Origin: an uncultured bacterium
Lineage (GTDB): Bacteria > Cyanobacteriota > Vampirovibrionia > Gastranaerophilales > Gastranaerophilaceae
Direction of reading: 5' to 3'
DNA length: 64,000 nucleotides
NCBI GenBank assembly: GCA_902765215.1
Contig: CACWZA010000011.1
Span: 10,897 to 74,896 of the forward strand
Shown: positions 9,001 to 34,652 of the stretch, piece by piece
How positions within the stretch are numbered: the stretch's first letter is position 1
Layout: every line of letters starts with the position of its first letter
Program-made: the position numbers and the translations under genes
Notes under the pieces: model-generated
Told to the model about the DNA's origin: nothing
The model's input: only the letters and a program-made list of their open reading frames with translations
Databases searched by the model: none

Positions 9001-12000
9001 ACTGTCACTTGCAATTATATATAAATCTTTTGTTGCAGACTGAATAGCACCACCTGCCGTAGCAGCCGCGTTACCTGTAAATGATGAATCTCTTAGGACA
9101 ACAAAACTGTCTTCATCAATAACCAACGCACCACCGTAACCTTCAGAACCATAAGCATAGTTACCGGTGAAAGTTGCGCTTAAATTATAAATGTCTGCAT
9201 CTTTAAAATATCCTGCACCACCATACGCAGAGAAGGTATCGTCTTTTGCTTCCGCATAGTTGCCTGAAAAAGTACCTGTTATACTACCGATAGCACCCTC
9301 TGCGTAGATTGCACCACCATAAGCACCTTCGCCCGAAGCAGTATAGTTACCCGAGAAACTTCCCGTAACATCATATATTTTACCTGCAGCAGTCTGGTAA
9401 ATCGCACTACCATAACCGACGCCCGAAGCTTCGGCAACACCGTCAAGATAGTTATTTACAAAATTTGCTTTAACATTTTGAATATATGATGCGTTATATA
9501 AAGTTGCACCATTTTGAGAGACACCGCCTGCAAACGCAATTCCGTTATTTGTAAAGACAACATTTCTGATATCAAGAGTACCTTCGTTCCCTACCGCATA
9601 ACCGTCAACGAAATCGCACCAGCCGTCACCCGTAACAGTGCCCGTTGAATCCATACCAACATTATAGATACCCAGCGTTTGGCCACTCTGAACATTTACA
9701 CCTGAAGCACCACTCGTTGCACGAACGGCATATCCGCCCCCGTCAACCGTGAAATTTGTTGTTTCCTGCATACCCAAACTAGAGCTTACGATTTCATCTT
9801 CAGACATTAAATAATCGTAACGGGAAACCCCCAAATGGAGCGCCCCTGATAAGTTTGCCATTGTGAATGTCAATTCACCTTTGGTTGGACCGTTAATATA
9901 ACTAACAAAATATGTATAACCGCCGCCCGTTGCAGCAATAATACTGTCAGTAAGTCCGAGATAGTTCTTTAATGTACCGTTAGCAAGAGTAATTGTTTTA
10001 GGAGTACTTCCTAAATTAGTCGCATTAAGTACATTAATATTTTCAATCAAAATTTTATAAGTAGTACCGCTTGTCCAGTTTGTAACATTGATTGTGTCAG
10101 CCGTACCTGCAGAAAAATCAACATCAATTATTGCATTTAAATCAGAGGCTAAAGTCAGTGTATTAACCGTAAGCGGAGCAGAAACAGAACCGTTTGCAAA
10201 GTCTAATAAACCGCCTGTTGCATCGTTTGTCATTGTTGTTATATTCAGAGCACCTGTTGATGTTGTACTGTCAGGCTGAACCATATCTCGTAATCTGATA
10301 TAAGGAGTATTATAAAGGTTCAGATTAGGAACGGTAACCGTATTTTTAAAGATAAATTCCCCGCCGACCTGATTAACAGTATCTGTTTGATACCCTGATA
10401 TATCTTCTTTTGCAGAGGCATATGTCATACCTGTTTTACCGATATTCAGGGTTGCGCCCGAACCTGACAAAATAGAACCGCCAAAGGATATAGTACGGTT
10501 TGTTCTGGCATTCAGATTGAGTGTCATACTATCAGCAATATAAACATCGTTGAAGGTTCCGCCTGTTGCCGTATAACTTCCGACAGAACCGCCGAGTGTA
10601 ACACCCGATTTGTTGTCTGAGAACTCAACATTACCAATATTTGCAATAATATTTACATCCATACCGACATACAACGCACCACCCTTGTTTGCAGTTTTAT
10701 TTCCTGTCAAAACAGAATCCATGATGGTTGCTGTTACTTCACTACCCTCAACACTAATCGCACCACCATATCCTTTAGCAATATTGTCTACAAATTGAGT
10801 GTTTTTAAACAGAACATGTCCGATTTCATTTGGAGTACCTGTGAATCGCCAAACACGAACAGCACCACCCATTGAAGCTGAATTATTACTGTCAAAAAGA
10901 ACCCCGTCCGTTGTCATATAAGTAATTACATAGATTGCGCCGCCACCTTTATTATCATTCGGGTTTGATGTTGAATCCGAACTATAATTCTTTCTGAAAA
11001 CAGAATCTTTTATATAGACAATACTGTTCTTCTCAAGGTTAATTGCACCGCCACGGGCAGTTGCCGAACTGTTAATAAAAGTCGAATCGGTTACTTTAAG
11101 CGCAGCACCTTCTGTTGTATTGAAAGCCGAACCACGTTGCCCAAGCCCGTTTGAAAACACGGTATTTGAAATATAACCCTTTGCGCCGGAACCGAACAAT
11201 CTTATTGCAACTCTGTTTTTACTCCCGTTGTTTCTTATTGAATAAAAAACAGAATCCGAAATATTCAACGTACCGTTTTGTATCTGTATAAAACCGTTAT
11301 CAGCAATAGATGTAACGTTAGCAATAGCGGTGTTATTGATGTTTAAGACAGCATTCGTAGAATTCATAGATGCAAAATAAGAGCTCATACCGGACCACGC
11401 CCTTGTTACGGTTACACTCGTGATATCCTCACCTGTCCTGTTTATTGTGAACAAGCCGACATCATTGATAGTGAGGGTTTTACCCGCGCCAATGCTAACA
11501 CCGTTTTTACTGTTACCGTTAACCCCGTAATTATCCCCAATAATCTCGAGTATTGTACCACCAAGAGTACCCAAGTTAGCAGACAGCGTTTCGGTTGTTG
11601 TCAACTCATAAGTCTTATCCGCATCTGAGGATGTAATCGCCTCATTAATACTTGCGTATGCCAACAGTTCAGAAGCAAAGCCCGTAGGAGCTTCTTTCGG
11701 GTCAGTAGTCATACTTTTACGGACACTTTGAGGCTGATTTTTTGCGTCCACCCCTTTTTGAATAGTTTTTGAGGAATTTTGAGGTAATTTTTCGGTATAT
11801 GAGAAGATGTTTGTCTTTTTATCATTCATCAGTCCGGATATTGATGAATTAAGACTTGTCATAGCAAGACAGTCAGCATTGTACGAAATCTCTTCCGCCA
11901 TAACCGCAGTACCTATCGTCAAACAACACAAACCTAAAAGCATTCCGAATAAAATCTTTCCAAAACTCTTGCCACCAGCTTTCAAAGCCAAGCAAAGGTT

Positions 12001-12060
12001 ATTGGAGCAGAGATTAAATCCGGAGTTAATTCTCTTTCTCATAACTTTAAACTTCCTCAT
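1..12060 (-). CDS. Giant secreted Pmp-repeat / autotransporter-passenger-type adhesin, first 4,020 codons (3' end runs off the left edge of the window)
   Basis: The minus frame (plus-strand triplets starting at 3k+1) shows no tta/cta/tca in every 60-nt line I spot-checked between base 1 and the ATG at 12060 (alternative ATG at 12042). The track lists no long competing minus ORF here, consistent with an ORF lacking an in-window stop. The N-terminus MRKFKVMRKRINSG...LLGLCCLTIGTAVMA is a long signal region. The body is full of Pmp-type GGAI(Y)/FxxN motifs, e.g. ARGGAINLEKN, KGGALYVG, FSDNKSG, GGAIYAE. All plus-strand ORFs listed in 40-12085 are antisense artefacts. Confidence 0.85.
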   Translation of the reverse strand, partial: MRKFKVMRKRINSGFNLCSNNLCLALKAGGKSFGKILFGMLLGLCCLTIGTAVMAEEISYNADCLAMTSLNSSISGLMNDKKTNIFSYTEKLPQNSSKTIQKGVDAKNQPQSVRKSMTTDPKEAPTGFASELLAYASINEAITSSDADKTYELTTTETLSANLGTLGGTILEIIGDNYGVNGNSKNGVSIGAGKTLTINDVGLFTINRTGEDITSVTVTRAWSGMSSYFASMNSTNAVLNINNTAIANVTSIADNGFIQIQNGTLNISDSVFYSIRNNGSKNRVAIRLFGSGAKGYISNTVFSNGLGQRGSAFNTTEGAALKVTDSTFINSSATARGGAINLEKNSIVYIKDSVFRKNYSSDSTSNPNDNKGGGAIYVITYMTTDGVLFDSNNSASMGGAVRVWRFTGTPNEIGHVLFKNTQFVDNIAKGYGGAISVEGSEVTATIMDSVLTGNKTANKGGALYVGMDVNIIANIGNVEFSDNKSGVTLGGSVGSYTATGGTFNDVYIADSMTLNLNARTNRTISFGGSILSGSGATLNIGKTGMTYASAKEDISGYQTDTVNQVGGEFIFKNTVTVPNLNLYNTPYIRLRDMVQPDSTTSTGALNITTMTNDATGGLLDFANGSVSAPLTVNTLTLASDLNAIIDVDFSAGTADTINVTNWTSGTTYKILIENINVLNATNLGSTPKTITLANGTLKNYLGLTDSIIAATGGGYTYFVSYINGPTKGELTFTMANLSGALHLGVSRYDYLMSEDEIVSSSLGMQETTNFTVDGGGYAVRATSGASGVNVQSGQTLGIYNVGMDSTGTVTGDGWCDFVDGYAVGNEGTLDIRNVVFTNNGIAFAGGVSQNGATLYNASYIQNVKANFVNNYLDGVAEASGVGYGSAIYQTAAGKIYDVTGSFSGNYTASGEGAYGGAIYAEGAIGSITGTFSGNYAEAKDDTFSAYGGAGYFKDADIYNLSATFTGNYAYGSEGYGGALVIDEDSFVVLRDSSFTGNAAATAGGAIQSATKDLYIIASDSNVVFSGNKTGAITNNGDGSFSMAGAYTYNDISFGEQARLYLNAAEGRSIEFGGSVEGDPSDVATIYINESTNKVPHMNPDYTISTPEYITEVGGDYKFYGAVNNVNLYMYHGANVILGTKLQDDATTRTYGSLNLNMFSNDGNGGVISAQNDYIDTLSFGSAALGSDLTMKIDVDLTGAANPSENPAADMITATSIMGSHKFIIDDIKLITGRDLGTETVIIPVADSVTMYQVALPSEIVNFADTISTYFIRYVVDDINSVGNLLFTKASLAGAMHLGVDVLTYNLAFAENIDGPMGIMTTGDLTINGNGYSIDMNDNEGVTIASGKSLTVNSVGTAQFLDGSGNPTTDLSEVASVNVTNAWNSAYNDSTDGGAIYVSNGATLDIENSVFSGNYVDGKSGGAIYNDGGTITNITGVFSNNGKADADKGGAIYTGNDGVVNNISAVFVGNQSDEGGAIYAESGKVKITDSLFLGNYAATEGGAISGAADMYVSNTIFKNNRAASGAAVADVQRLTGYGVTYTGNYATSGNGGAIINTNAEEVYFNSIFTNNAAGGNGGAVYQSGIAAFVDPVFNNNTATLGGAIYNNAQKLYIIADSGDVTFRGNRAGTVTVSDSGVVNIEDARYNDIYSTADIYLNANQHGFDTRTIRFDGTIEGSGYKIYFDQTGDTVDVISSDLTRSTYSVSQHGGIYQFNNVVSGATLDLNNGSNIKLGTITQPDSTVTHGTLTLAGFTNDAEGGVLDTQNNYIGTTALGDVVLNSDVTIKIDVSLAGETPVGDYFTATSINDTTYKFILDNVVAISDSEDYADLFVNIADNVMKGHIGLSRKRINASGTTKNYLVTYSNETGNLAFRTLGADLYTAISNTDSDRSYVMTQEEELWCDLGNMGGVDSSLTIDGRDFDVNGYDDYVDEHYAGVTVLAGQTLTIYDMGNWKNMASTTAGGAIKNIGSLSVEDTNFINNTSDVSGGAIHNAGTAYVIAKTEDVVFSGNTANGEANDIYNSGTLYLQADADRTMTLGGGISDTGAGFTAGNLYFGGTYLDSEMMMHYYTGTVDVNGDVLQRNINVQTGKVIFTGNLVVTNNLVNDGELVINAAGGVTGTISGAGSVRFNPGVGNTFTVNVLNNSNVGFGTGTTRLTTAGTKNYSSTVMGGGAFNVQNSGVDTIDFGDLTLNDDMLLYLDADLANTVMDTIDASGTIESNDHKLLIRSIKALSDNSYGTAVQITSNPTLMGIIALSFPHLNVSGYSSGTYLVTYDNTTGYLTFNEGSSLYDAIHVNTASSRVYDVYGDENVAQTFGTMAGSNAELTIQGYGCSVNMQGNGGATLASGQTINVADVGTFRAYDSDGNQVTDFTNHIAEVDKVKIDESWNGTGTSALFVLNNGSALNISNSAFYNNLNGVNARTISNSGGTLDITNSVFMNNGGTSSDAVIYSDAEDSKTHIANSIFIGNHSTGQGGLFRNEYGTALIENSVFLGNYSTNQGGALKNRGYGNLTVRDSVFKGNISYNGSNQGNGGALIGSSNTTVINSLFSGNIAYNGGAITAEGRPFALVDSVVKDNFAKNSGGGLYMSSWVYVIAENADVLFTNNKSGATITGSAGNYKASGGTYNDVFISANSPIYLNAAEGRTIRFDGGITGTNTGSEVKIGFTSESYRVVKDDLSGYDLVSANQIGGTYLFNNTVSVGGLVLANNPYVKFGSVVQEDGTTTYGSLNLSSKVLLDNTAGAVLDFQNSHMDTNTLGTITAKSNINLKIDADMTALTADSFSATKFYGNYAGRFIVTDIDLQNRTELGTSGKLSINIADEALRQYFKVSDLLHYDALPGGADLYVGYDALAGDLIFAGADNFGLYFAVHDTTNNRVYSMSKNEDVYVDLGTMQGDNTTMTIDGNGYDINGYMHSGIVVQAGQTLNARNIGMTSEGEVVEGAKGINNFTTGWIFRNGGTLDIQNVLFSDNRMYVNTTPYLYGGLVSNYSPGFVKNITGKAINNRMGDWNGTFTSNGGALINNSGTIQNIEMDFINNYQKIQAQHGSVIRNDGGKIGNITASLFGNQTVFSQQSFGGAIYNISGTIGSITGEFRDNMVYSSWGTGLGAVLYTNGGNIYNISGLFENNYNFRTNGAAEGQGGAIRTWSGATYVRDAVFRNNIAAGNGGAIYAGGPVRIIADEGNVIFTGNKLATITRDDTTGEITISDNFTYNDLFMTNGGSVYLSAKEGRSVIFDGTIRSNNNNYLSLGEITSRTEYVINDDGTATSTAVPVENGGEYIFNNAVTGVQFRIYGQNVKLGSKLQENGEMSYGVLNANSLIVPSAGAMLDTRNNHVDAHNFGSVGLNSQAANRFAYDLNMALDVDLADAANPEADTFSGTMNYRYNNAMFVISDIGVVGDMTTPDPVSVSIVNENLKSYFKLTEDKIKIDGKKDGYKYYVTYNNEDGNLTFSLASIYAALDIDYYNLSYTMSEDETSDVDWGDMGDTIKVIDGAGYTVDADGHSGSNVAVGQTLTFKNVTLTNFDKMFNNAGTMLVENATVTGNTASTGSTLANSGTMTLKNVVISNNTATEGNTITNSGTMLLEDVTFTDNTNTAGGTLNNSGTTTIRAINKGIVFSGSVTGEDSIDIHNTGTLNLNTVEKKSISFYGKIVDNAETPTGKIDITGDGIVRFEQDIVQDKVTLNSGIISISNIANINALLDVNGGKFITNNDEIGVHTIDAINLNNDLKLGIDTDLSLRAIDRFNIGDLETNGNHLVLDSIAIFKEAREYVTQVVLTDDPELLSAFALSDNFQRNIMKAANVYNNYLVTYDPETGILTFTVDAPTNFGDGTIDKIHVSSANYLDDTEREPIELTDVQSEGAVSVKIGNEVLYFTPSDELRETLTNLVNACGLALMETTEDDNPVFSYGDKFYTYNKILLPFSGYTLTPQETAEGENVINKPVYNEETGELEDRYYALNLKATTYNHGENYKTYQVKAPYDEVTITARYGVDSDYDEVHKENVAEVELDNPSGHSTYDNALIVDNES

Positions 12061-12381
12061 AACATACTATTCAGTTTTACCGTAAGCTATGCTATACATA
12101 CTCCCTAAACATAGCACAGGCGTACCCCTTAGCCTCATAAGGGAACTTTTTCTTAATACACTATGTGTTCATATATATATAATATGTAGTCTTGAATCCC
12201 ACGTCTGACATTCACAAAAGACTAATTTATTTCAAACATAACTTATAATATTATTATAAGCCGTTCGTCGAAAGTTTTCAACAATATTAAGCATTTTTTT
12301 ACATTTTTAACAACAATTTTTATATCCCCCGAATACACGATATTTTGTTTCAAGAAAACATGTTAGTGGTACTATATTATT

Positions 12382-33770: not shown

Positions 33771-33857
33771 GGAGAGGTGTCCGAGTGGTTTAAGGTGCAA
33801 ACCTGGAACGTTTGTGTGGGGGAAACTCCACCGCGGGTTCGAATCCCGCCTTCTCCG
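33771..33857 (+). tRNA. tRNA-Ser (anticodon GGA), class II with long variable arm; CCA not encoded
   Basis: GGAGAGG acceptor stem pairs with CTTCTCC. Anticodon stem CAAAC/GTTTG with loop CTGGAAC. Long variable arm TGTGGGGGAAACTCCACC. T arm GCGGG-TTCGAAT-CCCGC. Aligns base-for-base in layout with E. coli tRNA-Ser(GGA). Confidence 0.9.
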
Positions 33858-33865
33858 AATAAAAC
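33843..33865 (+). repeat. att-like direct repeat, copy 1 (3' end of tRNA-Ser plus 8 nt)
   Basis: atcccgccttctccgaataaaac is identical to 40001-40023. A 16-nt core recurs at 34083-34098. Confidence 0.8.
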
Positions 33866-33895
33866 CCGCAACCCTTATGGGTGGCGGGTTTTATT
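33861..33895 (+). terminator. Rho-independent terminator after tRNA-Ser
   Basis: aaaacccgcaaccc-tta-tgggtggcgggtttt. Confidence 0.6.
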
Positions 33896-33989
33896 ATTAG
33901 GGATGAGAACCACAAAACGAAGTTTTGTTTAGGTTCGAACAAGCCCGAGCAGAGGAATGAGCAATGTGGAATGGGTTGTATAGCAACTC

Positions 33990-34082
33990 ATTCCGCGAGC
34001 GAAAGGTGAAGCACGACTCGGCGGAAGTGTTGACTTCCGACGGGAGTGCGAACGGTTCCGTTTAACGCGAGGGCGCAGCTGC
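33990..34082 (-). repeat. Copy of a GC-rich structured intergenic repeat family (inverted relative to 55595-55908)
   Basis: cggttccgtttaacgcgagg (34053-34072) is the exact reverse complement of 55656-55675. The flanking agcacg..gtg..ga block is loosely similar to the reverse complement of 55873-55907. The track's Arg-rich minus ORF 33929-34144 lies inside this element and looks spurious. Confidence 0.5.
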
Positions 34083-34098
34083 CCCGCCTTCTCCGAAT
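34083..34098 (+). repeat. att-like direct repeat, partial middle copy
   Basis: cccgccttctccgaat is a 16/16 match to the tRNA-Ser 3' end. Confidence 0.6.
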
Positions 34099-34269
34099 TT
34101 AAATTAAGACGGCAGCGACGGTTGTCGTCTTTTTTATCATTCAATTTAACTATTTTAATTTTCAGGAAAATATGTTAATATAATTATGTAGGGCAGCTCC
34201 CAGTAAGTCCCTCCTATACGCACAGCAACATCCAACTGGAGTATGGTGTAAGAAAGGAGGGAGCCGCTT

Positions 34270-34353
34270 ATGAAAAACAATTGGCGTGAAATAGCAAAAG
34301 GCGTCCTATTCGTAGTAGGACACCTTTGCATTTACTTTTCACAAAAACTGTAG
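34270..34353 (+). CDS. Candidate type I toxin-like small hydrophobic peptide (27 aa)
   Basis: My translation: MKNNWREIAKGVLFVVGHLCIYFSQKL. A perfect SD AGGAGGGA (34255-34262) lies 7 nt upstream of the ATG. An exact anti-SD TCCCTCCT lies at 34208-34215. A TATAAT lies at 34179-34184. A 3' hairpin GTAGGGA..GAGGTG-loop-CACCTC-TCCCTAC (34350-34392) embeds the stop codon. The region is locally GC-rich in an AT-rich setting. Confidence 0.35.
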   Translation: MKNNWREIAKGVLFVVGHLCIYFSQKL

Positions 34354-34433
34354 GGAACTGGACGAGGTGTCTCGCCGGGCACCTCTCCCTACGCTATTAT
34401 TATAAACTATTTTTTAGAAAATACAAGTATTGT

Positions 34434-34652
34434 TTAAAAATCTATTAATTGGGATAATTTCATCTTGTATGCATCTGCAAGTTTTAACAATGTAAGATAC
34501 TTTGGCTCAACAATACCTTGTTCTATACGGCTCACTGTTGAGGGTTCTAAACCATTTTTGTAGCACAAAGCCTCAAGGGTTAATTTGCGTTGTTTTCTAA
34601 GGGTTTTTATGTGCTGACCTAACTGTAATAATTTCTCATTATCTTCTTGCAT
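34434..34652 (-). CDS. XRE-family HTH transcriptional regulator (72 aa)
   Basis: MQEDNEKLLQLGQHIKTLRKQRKLTLEALCYKNGLEPSTVSRIEQGIVEPKYLTLLKLADAYKMKLSQLIDF is a complete Cro/CI HTH_3 domain. I reject the 64-aa N-terminal extension in the track ORF. Confidence 0.8.
   Translation of the reverse strand: MQEDNEKLLQLGQHIKTLRKQRKLTLEALCYKNGLEPSTVSRIEQGIVEPKYLTLLKLADAYKMKLSQLIDF

Follow-up and report, generated by a model that had tools for sequence, protein, structure and literature searches.

What does a 205-base locus with a very short ORF do at the edge of a tRNA-Ser island in an uncultured gut melainabacterium? The locus lies in a stretch of 64,000 nucleotides, called the window here, and the genome carries three copies of it. 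A sequence-only reading of this DNA had proposed a type I toxin-antitoxin (TA) module, in which a hydrophobic peptide with a sequestered Shine-Dalgarno (SD) sequence is controlled by an antisense RNA. The placement at the island edge is correct, as the 3' end of the tRNA-Ser is repeated at 34083 and 40003. The functional proposal is also supported, as each hallmark on which it was built is conserved in more than 30 diverged copies. The locus is probably a type I TA module of a previously undescribed family.

BLAST across the family mostly returned promoter-sized fragments, and the copies were collected by pattern scans and a covariance model. More than 30 distinct, diverged copies were found in MAGs of Gastranaerophilales/Melainabacteria. 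The covariance model matches 29 of 151 genomes (~19%) and 16 of 60 genera of one Gastranaerophilales family, with one to three copies per genome, and none of 118 genomes from ten sister families of the class. Pattern matches in Bacteroidota, Patescibacteria, Spirochaetes and other groups were rejected as chance, being plain GTAGGGAC...GTCCCTAC palindromes without the ORF, the SD or the upstream GTAGGG. In the family alignment, which was itself fitted to the model, both sides have changed in 14 of 30 pairs and 93.5% of the cells are paired. The covariation score of the alignment, 0.327, is reached by none of 500 shuffles, which score 0.114, and slid controls give 0.06-0.08. Since the features of the locus recur in more than 30 distinct copies of other genomes with compensatory changes, they are far beyond chance.

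Table 1. Features of the locus in the window.
Feature	Position	Strand	Remarks
Sense (toxin) promoter, extended -10 TG-n-TAATAT, weak -35	34173..34181	+	6 nt before the GTAGGG start
Predicted toxin mRNA, 205 nt, GUAGGG to CCCUAC	34188..34392	+	Fold; conservation in >30 copies; metatranscriptome contigs
5' closure segment	34188..34201	+	nt 1-6 pair with terminal CCCUAC; nt 7-14 with GGGAACUG just past the stop
Anti-SD UCCCUCCU	34208..34215	+	Part of a longer 5'UTR strand pairing with GUGU, the SD and the AUG region
Repeat X (AACUGGA)	34234..34240	+	Apical part of the 5'UTR hairpin; proposed second antisense target
Shine-Dalgarno AGGAGGGA	34255..34262	+	Every intact copy has GGAGG or GGGGG 6-10 nt upstream of its start codon
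ORF, 27 codons	34270..34353	+	Polar/basic N-terminus, ~17-residue hydrophobic stretch to the C-terminus; UAG stop within GUAGGGA
Antisense terminator inside the toxin ORF (terminator-like)	34285..34327	-	Stem-loop 34327-34297, then U-rich tail
Predicted antisense RNA, ~100 nt, starts GUAGGG	34288..34392	-	5' hairpin domain, spacer, terminator
Repeat X' (AACUGGA)	34356..34362	+	Directly past the stop codon; identical to X
3' hairpin of the mRNA (5' hairpin of the antisense RNA on the other strand)	34364..34385	+	GAGGTG/CACCTC, covarying arms
Terminal CCCUAC	34387..34392	+	Partner: 5' GUAGGG, alternatively the internal GUAGGG at the stop
Antisense (antitoxin) promoter TTGTAT, 16 nt, TATAAT, 6 nt to GUAGGG	34399..34426	-	Conserved in copies

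The predicted toxin mRNA is strongly structured. A 213-nt RNA folds at -77 kcal/mol (z = -4.69), and none of 200 shuffles is as stable. The SD/anti-SD helix, 5'-3' closure and 3' hairpin that had been read from the sequence all appear in the minimum-free-energy fold. The closure between the terminal CCCUAC and the 5' GUAGGG is seen in the minimum-free-energy folds of all copies and covaries in the family. CCCUAC is invariant across the 33 copies of alignment A5, and more distant copies carry the matched pair UAGGGU/ACCCUA in its stead. The closure pair nt 9/171 is GC in 11 copies, AU in 8 and GU in 1, with no mismatch, and the arms occur as CAAUUCC/GGGAUUG, AGUCC/GGACU, AGUUCC/GGAACU and GCAGUCC/GGGACUGC.

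The translation initiation region is locked because nt ~12-48 of the 5'UTR pair with the SD and the AUG. The complementarity of AGGAGGGA to the upstream TCCCTCCT, on which the proposed sequestration was based, holds, and SD sequestration is conserved across the family. For group A and the copy in the window, the SD is paired with a probability of ~1.0. The lock of group B is formed by CCUUU and an anti-AUG strand (AUGG/CCAU). SD/AUG is sequestered in the folds of all copies. The 3' structure is as first described, with GTAGGGA (34350-34356) holding the TAG stop, followed by the GAGGTG/CACCTC hairpin and CCCTAC. This hairpin has 24 distinct sequences, every one of them self-complementary, and both sides have changed in six of seven pairs. 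The duplex energy of its arms is -11.2 kcal/mol for cognate and -4.1 kcal/mol for non-cognate combinations. Over 13 nt the hairpin is complementary to the 5' end of the tRNA-Ser, a match that is absent from other copies and likely due to chance.

The two promoters of the locus converge. A TATAAT is present at 34179-34184, where the toxin -10 element had been placed, but the family alignment sets the -10 at TG-n-TAATAT, which overlaps it 3 nt upstream. TGnTAnnAT is found in 22 of 28 distinct upstream regions, and its 6-nt distance is fixed in 20. The best candidate for the sense -35 mostly has three matches out of six. On the minus strand, TTGTAT (34426-34421), 16 nt and TATAAT (34404-34399) were identified correctly, and this convergent promoter is conserved in the family. 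Its -10 is a perfect TATAAT in all 33 copies compared. The -35 reads TTGAAA in 24 of them and TTGTAT in 7; 30 copies have a spacer of 16 nt, and in 31 GTAGGG follows the -10 after 6 nt. The family form TTGAAA-16-TATAAT-6-GUAGGG is near consensus, and the antisense promoter is predicted to be the stronger of the two. A specific link between the toxin promoter and CRISPR repeats, suggested by a shared 15-mer, was rejected. The motif occurs at five ordinary promoter-like sites as well as in the CRISPR repeats, so it looks like the usual extended -10 form of the organism.

At the level of sequence, the locus contains an antisense gene that has a promoter and a terminator of its own and whose product would be complementary to the toxin mRNA. 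The overlapping RNA that had been postulated is predicted in the whole set of 33 copies with the conserved promoter. The antisense folds share the same two-domain shape in 21 of 22 copies (-36 to -50 kcal/mol), and the exception, L041, is a mis-extracted segment. The pairs of the terminator covary (AU/GC/UA and AU/GC/CG/UA). In the ORF hairpin, the mismatch C·A in the sense RNA, which is G·U in the antisense RNA, occurs 23 times and the opposite kind twice, indicating that the hairpin is a terminator of the antisense strand. The antisense strand forms the more stable hairpin in 24 of 34 copies, and the tail has a mean of 8.1 U per 13 nt.

The antisense RNA may recognize a second site. X and X' form a direct repeat of 7-9 nt that co-varies in at least 11 variants, e.g., AACUGGA versus AUUGUGCAA, and the pattern holds in divergent copies too. 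The mean longest common substring of X and X' is 7.4 nt for cognate and 4.3 nt for non-cognate pairs, and the duplex energies at the second site are -16.0 and -11.3 kcal/mol, respectively. In most copies, the segment of the antisense RNA complementary to X' makes up the unpaired internal loop of its 5' hairpin.

RNA from such loci appears to be present in metatranscriptomes. Two bovine-gut contigs cover the predicted transcript alone, without flanking sequence; contig X2 (199 nt) extends from 34192 to ~34389 and contig X3 (168 nt) from 34221 to ~34387. The contig ends are within 3-4 nt of the predicted transcript ends, though Logan contigs carry no strand and DNA carry-over in RNA libraries is possible.

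The 27-aa hydrophobic ORF was confirmed, and the family shows the coding signature of a hydrophobic helix. Family ORFs have 24-29 codons, and the UAG stop lies within the second GUAGGG. The mean Kyte-Doolittle hydropathy is +1.9 in the ORF frame, against -0.3 and -0.4 in the other frames. The peptide has no match in Pfam, NCBIfam and PDB profile searches. With a pN/pS of ~0.87, a value that is uninformative at the divergence of the family, residue identity seems barely constrained. The most conserved residues (I-x-K, A-L and G-H/Q) coincide with the antisense terminator stem and U-tract, and so may be conserved for RNA reasons. On the reverse strand, a 58-aa ORF (34331-34155) was rejected, with start, length and presence all unconserved.

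Such a peptide may have a function other than toxicity. Many bacterial small membrane proteins of similar size are non-toxic, and an ORF that is coding and hydrophobic with weak constraint on residue identity would also suit a harmless membrane protein under cis-antisense control, modulating a transporter or a sensor with no TA logic. The distribution of the copies argues against this. The one to three copies in about 19% of the family genomes are patchily distributed, sometimes in tandem and often adjacent to tRNA genes, and their contexts are unrelated (the tRNA-Ser island edge, tRNA-Lys, tRNA-Ile and the cas9-cas1 gap). In the last case, copy b is inserted antisense between cas9 and cas1. 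A genome of the same genus (G130) has cas9 (70% amino acid identity) and no module; comparison of the two intergenic regions at the DNA level gave no alignment fit to define the insertion ends. Decayed copies have lost toxin features, namely the start codon, the SD, the frame or the 5' half. The antisense promoter is retained in two of three decayed copies, and in L060 its -35 is degraded as well. The patchy multi-copy spread, the unrelated contexts, the decay, the triple translational lock and an antisense promoter that outdoes the sense promoter fit a selfish module and not a housekeeping regulator, which makes the harmless membrane protein unlikely.

It is less probable still that the locus encodes only a pair of structured non-coding RNAs, such as an sRNA and its sponge, in which the ORF is incidental and untranslated. 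The strongest conservation and covariation are indeed in RNA helices, and the most conserved codons are those that overlap the antisense terminator. The ORF nevertheless behaves as a coding sequence. An SD precedes the AUG at the same narrow distance in all intact copies, and length differences between copies are whole codons wherever the in-frame start survives. T is found at codon position 2 with a frequency of 0.60, against 0.24 at position 1 and 0.31 at position 3. In the 78-nt ORF alignment, stops interrupt the +1 frame in 34 of 34 copies and the +2 frame in 16 of 34. Hydrophobicity is kept in the loop and C-terminal codons despite their sequence variation.

Some leaderless peptides have comparable size and hydrophobicity, and the 24-29 residues of the family recall them. 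A secreted cytolytic or bacteriocin-like peptide of this kind, similar to the phenol-soluble modulins and acting on other cells, is very improbable. The polar head and hydrophobic tail are not amphipathic over the full length, the neighbouring ORFs scanned in two contexts contain no exporter, immunity or modification Pfam domain, and the elaborate antisense and translational lock are typical of self-toxic products. A leader peptide or attenuator controlling a downstream gene is hardly credible, for although a short ORF with its stop codon within a hairpin resembles ribosome-sensing attenuators, a conserved convergent promoter lies immediately downstream in every copy, and the locus is followed by no gene in the same orientation (the next one in the window, 34434-34652, is on the opposite strand; after copy b comes the 3' end of cas9).

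The type I TA module is envisaged to work as follows. The weak extended -10 promoter would give a ~205-nt toxin mRNA, the ends of which would be tied by GUAGGG with CCCUAC and by nt 7-14 with the segment past the stop. The C-terminal helix of the 27-residue peptide is expected to insert in and damage the inner membrane. The stronger convergent promoter would give a ~100-nt antisense RNA, also starting with GUAGGG and ending at the terminator hairpin within the ORF. This RNA would be fully complementary to the 3'UTR and the last two-thirds of the ORF, and its unpaired internal loop would also be complementary to the apical 5'UTR loop copy of the co-evolving repeat (7-9 nt). The mRNA would be silenced both by an extended duplex with the antisense RNA, leading to decay, and by the antisense RNA bound near the ribosome-binding site. 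We infer toxicity, antitoxin action, RNase involvement and the relative stability of the RNAs.

Does the module belong to a known family? It has three traits of the type I class: a hydrophobic ORF of fewer than 60 aa with its own SD (27 aa; 24-29 aa in the family), the antisense gene predicted from the sequence, and an mRNA fold that combines SD sequestration with a 5'-3' long-distance interaction. The hydrophobic stretch of only ~17 residues counts against the class assignment. Rfam gave no match at the locus at gathering score; gathering and permissive scans returned tRNAs and noise alone, and within 34150-34430 no relevant entry came up even at E values as high as 10, the check that the sequence-only reading had asked for. 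None of the covariance models of Rfam antitoxin families (Sok, RdlD, Sib, IstR, OhsC, OrzO, RatA, SR4-type, par RNA II and others) matched.

In par of Enterococcus faecalis pAD1 (Fst/RNA II), the promoters also converge and the RNAs are complementary at their 3' stem-loops (PMC7472228). A DNA direct repeat there creates a second region of complementarity near the translation start, an analogous logic with other placement, and an intramolecular stem sequesters the SD while the extreme 5' terminus of the toxin mRNA is buried in a helix (PMC7472228). Unlike par, the locus has no shared bidirectional terminator; its ~100-nt antisense RNA covers two-thirds of the ORF and has its own terminator within it. 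Both repeat copies are in the toxin mRNA, one in the 5'UTR loop and one in the 3'UTR, and the mRNA 5' end pairs with the 3' end, whereas that of par pairs with an upstream helix. The Fst peptide has a hydrophobic N-terminal domain with PXXXG and a charged C-terminal tail. The layout of the locus peptide is the opposite, and its alignment has no proline, PXXXG or charged C-terminal tail. The Fst/Ldr Pfam profiles do not match the peptide, nor does Rfam the locus.

TxpA/RatA, BsrG/SR4 and YonT/SR6 of Bacillus subtilis likewise have an antisense RNA encoded on the 3' side, where it reaches across the 3'UTR into the 3' part of the ORF, as well as a partly sequestered SD and a location in prophage- or island-like regions (PMC3834814, PMC8594479). 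These families are known from Gram-positive bacteria only (PMC8594479), whereas the host of the locus belongs to a diderm lineage. The toxins are longer (38-59 aa) with no sequence or profile similarity to the locus peptide, and a repeat-created second target site is undescribed for these systems. Since the geometry of TxpA/RatA and BsrG/SR4 is the same but sequence homology is absent, the resemblance is organisational and does not imply family membership.

Full-length hok and AapA1 mRNAs also have 5'-3' long-distance pairing and a sequestered SD that keeps the primary transcript translationally inert (PMC9841398, PMC6733600). Sok and IsoA1, however, target the 5' region and lie wholly within the mRNA, while the locus antisense RNA is at the 3' end. 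hok needs the mok leader ORF, and the locus has no overlapping upstream ORF. The hok and AapA1 mRNAs are activated by 3' trimming, whereas the SD lock of the locus is local to the 5'UTR with no obvious dependence on the 3' end, a point against the type I TA reading. No Hok/Gef domain was found with Pfam, and there is no homology to hok/Sok or AapA1/IsoA1.

ShoB and Ibs of E. coli are likewise very short peptides (19-26 aa), without sequence similarity to the locus peptide. [quoted passage not shown] OhsC is divergently encoded with no shoB overlap and Sib spans the whole ibs ORF, in contrast to the two-thirds covered at the locus. MsoT1/MsoA1 of Microcystis aeruginosa is a candidate type I TA whose cis antisense RNA covers the 3'UTR together with the 3' end of the ORF; MsoT1 has 63 aa and two predicted membrane helices and is unrelated to the locus peptide, and the host is a photosynthetic member of the wider lineage, Cyanobacteria, and not of Melainabacteria (PMC12390103).

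A joint reading of these features is tentative. The antitoxin RNA may read the toxin mRNA at two places via the co-evolving direct repeat, and three interdependent hexamer copies (5' GUAGGG, stop-codon GUAGGG and 3' CCCUAC) may freeze the ends of both RNAs into an interlocked switch. Through the copy that separates cas9 from cas1, a cell could come to depend on retaining its CRISPR-Cas locus.

The natural covariation, with more than 30 copies and at least 11 repeat variants, allows the two-site recognition model to be put to a direct test with compensatory mutations. The 27-codon ORFs match no curated NCBIfam model, and the covariance model can be used to annotate such loci in gut and rumen MAGs. 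No type I TA in the bacterial lineage of the host was found in the literature searched. With this family, a sister lineage of Cyanobacteria that is uncultured and non-photosynthetic would have a complete type I architecture, which RNA features alone sufficed to recognise. The family joins traits of Gram-positive systems (3'-overlapping antisense RNA and repeat-based second-site pairing) with a Gram-negative trait (5'-3' closure) that are otherwise split.

The sequence-only reading had called 34179-34426 a candidate type I toxin-antitoxin module, and its elements are found where it placed them: the ORF, the SD with its exact upstream complement, the two GTAGGG motifs, the second of which encloses the TAG stop, the GAGGTG/CACCTC hairpin followed by CCCTAC, and the opposing promoter. 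The RNA from 34188 to 34400 folds at -77 kcal/mol (z = -4.69; 0/200 shuffles equal it). The SD/anti-SD helix, the 3' hairpin and the proposed 5'-3' closure all appear in the computed fold. No known Rfam family matches the module. Only the sense promoter needs revision: the proposed TATAAT is present, but the -10 conserved in the family is an extended one that overlaps it.

Features of the module and its surroundings in the window
Feature	Position	Strand	Remark
tRNA-Ser(GGA) 3' end	33845-33859		recurs twice downstream
GC-rich segment	33893-34135		-95 kcal/mol, z -5.65
tRNA 3'-end repeat, left	34083-34097		16 nt at 34083
Palindrome ATTTTCAGGAAAATA	34158-34172		AT-rich
Sense extended -10 TGTTAATAT	34173-34181	+	overlaps TATAAT
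5' GTAGGG	34188	+	predicted mRNA start
SD complement	34208-34215	+	exact
X, AACUGGA	34234-34240	+	apical part of 5'UTR hairpin
SD	34255-34262	+	
Candidate toxin ORF	34270-34353	+	27 codons
Antisense terminator-like stem-loop	34327-34297	-	terminator call; stem inside toxin ORF
Second GTAGGGA	34350	+	encloses TAG stop
X'	34356-34362	+	repeats X directly after stop codon
CCCTAC	34387-34392	+	
Antisense promoter TTGTAT-N16-TATAAT	34426-34399	-	
Palindrome ATTTTTTAGAAAATA	34409-34423		AT-rich
XRE-family HTH gene	34434-34652	-	72 aa
tRNA 3'-end repeat, right	40003-40017		24 nt at 40000-40023
Phage GP30.3-domain gene	40084-41061		Pfam, E 1e-38

The mRNA structure is upheld by covariation, with 14 of 30 pairs changed on both sides among 33 copies. 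Paired cells amount to 93.5% in this alignment, which was fitted to the model and so favours structure. The covariation score is 0.327 versus 0.114 ± 0.009 for shuffles (0/500 reach it) and 0.06-0.08 for slid partners; the slid controls and hand-read variants are consistent with the model-fitted result. The 3' hairpin occurs in 24 different versions, each self-complementary, and its arms pair at -11.2 kcal/mol when cognate versus -4.1 when non-cognate. The pairing of the mRNA 5' end has two components. The first joins GUAGGG to the terminal CCCUAC and, being invariant, is uninformative for covariation. In the second, nucleotides 7-14 pair with GGGAnnUG just after the stop; one covarying position here shows GC in 11 copies, AU in 8 and GU in 1, with no mismatch. 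Variants of the closure arms include CAAUUCC/GGGAUUG, AGUCC/GGACU and GCAGUCC/GGGACUGC. The invariance of GUAGGG/CCCUAC is attributable to its triple use as the mRNA 5' end, the stop-codon context and the mRNA 3' end, which is also the antisense 5' end, so that one change would need three compensating ones. Every copy has a GUGU element, the SD and the start-codon region paired to 5'UTR nucleotides ~12-48. This lock is CCUCC/CUCC plus CAUAAG:CUUAUG in group A, and CCUUU plus AUGG:CCAU in group B. A 13-nt complementarity (12/13) between the tRNA-Ser 5' end (33771-33783) and the hairpin 3' arm (34376-34388) is absent from other copies and probably arose by chance.

Intramolecular pairing cannot account for a second conserved relation, the direct repeat X/X'. 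Both members, of 7-9 nt, change together across copies, with variants that include AACTGGA, ACTGACC, ACTGTCA, AACTGGTT, ATTGTGCAA, TTGGACAA, CTGCATA, ACTGGCAA, ATTGAGCAA and ACTGTGCAA. The longest common substring averages 7.4 nt for cognate X/X' versus 4.3 nt for non-cognate ones, and the rule holds also in divergent copies with other end motifs. In the 5' hairpin of the predicted antisense RNA, the internal loop, which is unpaired, is the complement of X'. It follows that the 5'UTR loop, which lies 12-15 nt before the SD, is also complementary to it; the duplex of the antisense loop with X reaches -16.0 kcal/mol for cognate versus -11.3 for non-cognate partners. The DRa/DRb repeats of the par locus follow the same logic (PMC7472228).

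The promoter of this antisense RNA lies downstream of CCCTAC on the other strand and is consistently nearer consensus than the sense promoter. TATAAT is perfect in 33/33 copies, the -35 is TTGAAA in 24 and TTGTAT in 7, the spacer is 16 nt in 30, and in 31 the -10 stands 6 nt from the complement of CCCTAC. On the sense side, an extended -10 (TG-n-TAnnAT) is present in 22 of 28 distinct copies, 6 nt from the 5' GTAGGG in 20, with a poor -35 (mostly 3/6 matches). Flanking sequence outside both promoters is not alignable among copies. Both RNAs are accordingly predicted to begin with GUAGGG. In the window copy, similar AT-rich palindromes occupy the spacer regions of both promoters and could be operator-like sites; they are not general among family copies.

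The predicted antisense RNA adopts the same fold in 21 of the 22 copies folded; the exception, L041, was a mis-extracted segment. Its 5' domain is GUAGGG...CCCUAC around a variable hairpin and an asymmetric internal loop, followed by a spacer, a stem-loop and UUUUAUUAUUU-like tails, with a mean of 8.1 U per 13 nt. The terminator stem covaries (AU/GC/UA at one position, AU/GC/CG/UA at the next) and in 24/34 copies its antisense-strand form is the more stable. Imperfect pairs are sense C·A, that is antisense G·U, in 23 cells versus 2 of the opposite kind. Such an imbalance provides direct sequence evidence for selection of the hairpin within the ORF as part of a predicted minus-strand RNA.

The ORF has 24-29 codons across copies, and its length differs by whole codons wherever the in-frame start survives. 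In the last 16 codons, T makes up 60% of position 2, versus 24% at position 1 and 31% at position 3, and position 2 also varies least. Mean hydropathy is +1.9 in the ORF frame versus -0.3 and -0.4 in the others. In the 78-nt ORF alignment, stops interrupt frame +1 in 34/34 copies and frame +2 in 16. The pN/pS of ~0.87 points to selection on hydrophobic character, not residue identity. The best-conserved residues (I-x-K, A/V-L and G-H/Q) overlap the antisense terminator and U-tract, and H-to-Q and A-to-V changes accompany compensatory base changes in the stem. The peptide has no match in Pfam, NCBIfam or PDB, and a reverse-strand ORF is not conserved among copies.

Transcription is indicated by two bovine-gut metatranscriptome runs, in which 41% of the words sampled from the 261-nt locus are present. 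Assembled contigs of 199 nt (34192-~34389) and 168 nt (34221-~34387) carry no flanking sequence and differ in the hairpin loop, and three of their four ends lie 2-5 nt from those predicted for the mRNA. They support a discrete RNA of ~200 nt; DNA carry-over is possible, and the contigs are strandless and thus silent on the antisense RNA.

Two pattern scans (one genome per GTDB species) yielded >30 distinct copies, all from the Gastranaerophilales/Melainabacteria lineage or gut bins. Matches in other phyla were simple palindromes without the remaining features. R1, a covariance model built on the SD-to-CCCTAC part, scores every copy (60.9 bits for the window copy) and matches 29/151 genomes and 16/60 genera of one Gastranaerophilales family, with 1-3 copies per genome. 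At class level, 13/32 genomes of the same family are positive, versus 0/118 from ten other families. A perfect member on a 6.5-kb contig in a 'Bacteroidaceae' bin (L080) is probably mis-binned. An 'Acutalibacteraceae' MAG (L073) has only the antisense-promoter geometry and a GTAGGG...CCCTAC hairpin, without ORF or R1 match. Decayed copies have lost the start codon and antisense -35 (L060), the entire 5' half (L069), or the SD and reading frame (L094); the latter two retain the antisense promoter and hairpins. In L042, a copy from another genome, the 5'UTR is interrupted by a repeat element.

A GC-rich dispersed repeat separates the window copy from tRNA-Ser(GGA), which lies 330 nt upstream of it. 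As had been proposed, it stands at the edge of a tRNA-Ser island, on the left border of a ~6-kb segment that has a repeat of the tRNA 3' end on either side. None of the ORFs scanned there matches an integrase domain; their Pfam domains are an XRE-family HTH regulator, TPR, zinc-ribbon/DUF4234 and TonB_C, and several have no Pfam match. The phage GP30.3-domain gene lies just past the island. The dispersed repeat (33893-34135) is highly structured, has 24 partial matches in the genome and no Rfam match, and resembles a MITE/REP-type element; the insert in the L042 5'UTR is a related piece of ~85 nt. The XRE-family HTH gene adjoins the antisense promoter, and an 86% identical copy is found with the module on a rumen MAG contig (L058). 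In this sub-lineage at least, the regulator and the module move as a pair. The genome from which the window comes (2.15 Mb, 36% GC) has two further module copies on contig C7, with 72% and 69% identity. Copy a repeats the order seen in the window, behind tRNA-Lys and the same dispersed repeat. Several copies elsewhere lie near tRNA-Ile, and two loci have tandem copies.

What the comparison establishes, at the level of predicted elements, is a pair of convergent promoters that differ in quality, a strongly locked mRNA that encodes a short hydrophobic peptide, and a putative antisense RNA gene under selection with two complementarity sites on the mRNA. An antisense RNA that overlaps the ORF from the 3' side is the organisation of Gram-positive families in T1TAdb (PMC8594479). 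Second-site pairing through repeats is shared with Fst/RNA II and SprA1, and 5'-3' closure with hok and AapA1. The peptide departs from the Fst definition in having no PXXXG and an inverted polarity. Since the module also matches no profile and no covariance model of known families, it belongs to none of the families described. Reports of type I systems are confined to Proteobacteria, Firmicutes and Tenericutes, apart from a 2025 Microcystis candidate whose 63-aa toxin is unrelated (PMC12390103). For Melainabacteria or Gastranaerophilales, searches of full texts turned up no account of type I systems. On the model of par, BsrG/SR4, TxpA/RatA, hok and AapA1 (PMC7472228, PMC3834814, PMC8594479, PMC6733600), the peptide would damage the membrane. 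Excess antisense RNA would pair first via the exposed loops and then over ~100 nt, blocking ribosome access and making the duplex a substrate for RNase III. If the locus were lost, the more stable, end-protected mRNA would be translated.

Copy b is found within a type II CRISPR-Cas locus on contig C7 (L095 9547-15104; cas9, cas1, cas2 and 12 repeats of 36 nt). At 9557-10310, the CRISPR repeat ends in an extended -10, TGTTATAAT, and shares the 15-mer AAAATATGTTATAAT with the copy b sense promoter (cf. window 34166-34181). Promoters embedded in repeats are typical of type II-C arrays. The form AAATATGTTAWWAT occurs 20 times in the genome versus ~1 expected (12 repeats, 3 modules and 5 ordinary promoter-like sites) and is probably the usual strong extended -10 of this organism. 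Copy b (11841-12084) is inserted, in antisense orientation, in the gap of 328 nt that separates cas9 from cas1. A same-genus genome (G130) has cas9 at 70% amino acid identity without the module, so that the insertion is strain-specific. Read-through from cas9 would add antitoxin-sense RNA, and copy b could stabilise the CRISPR-Cas locus.
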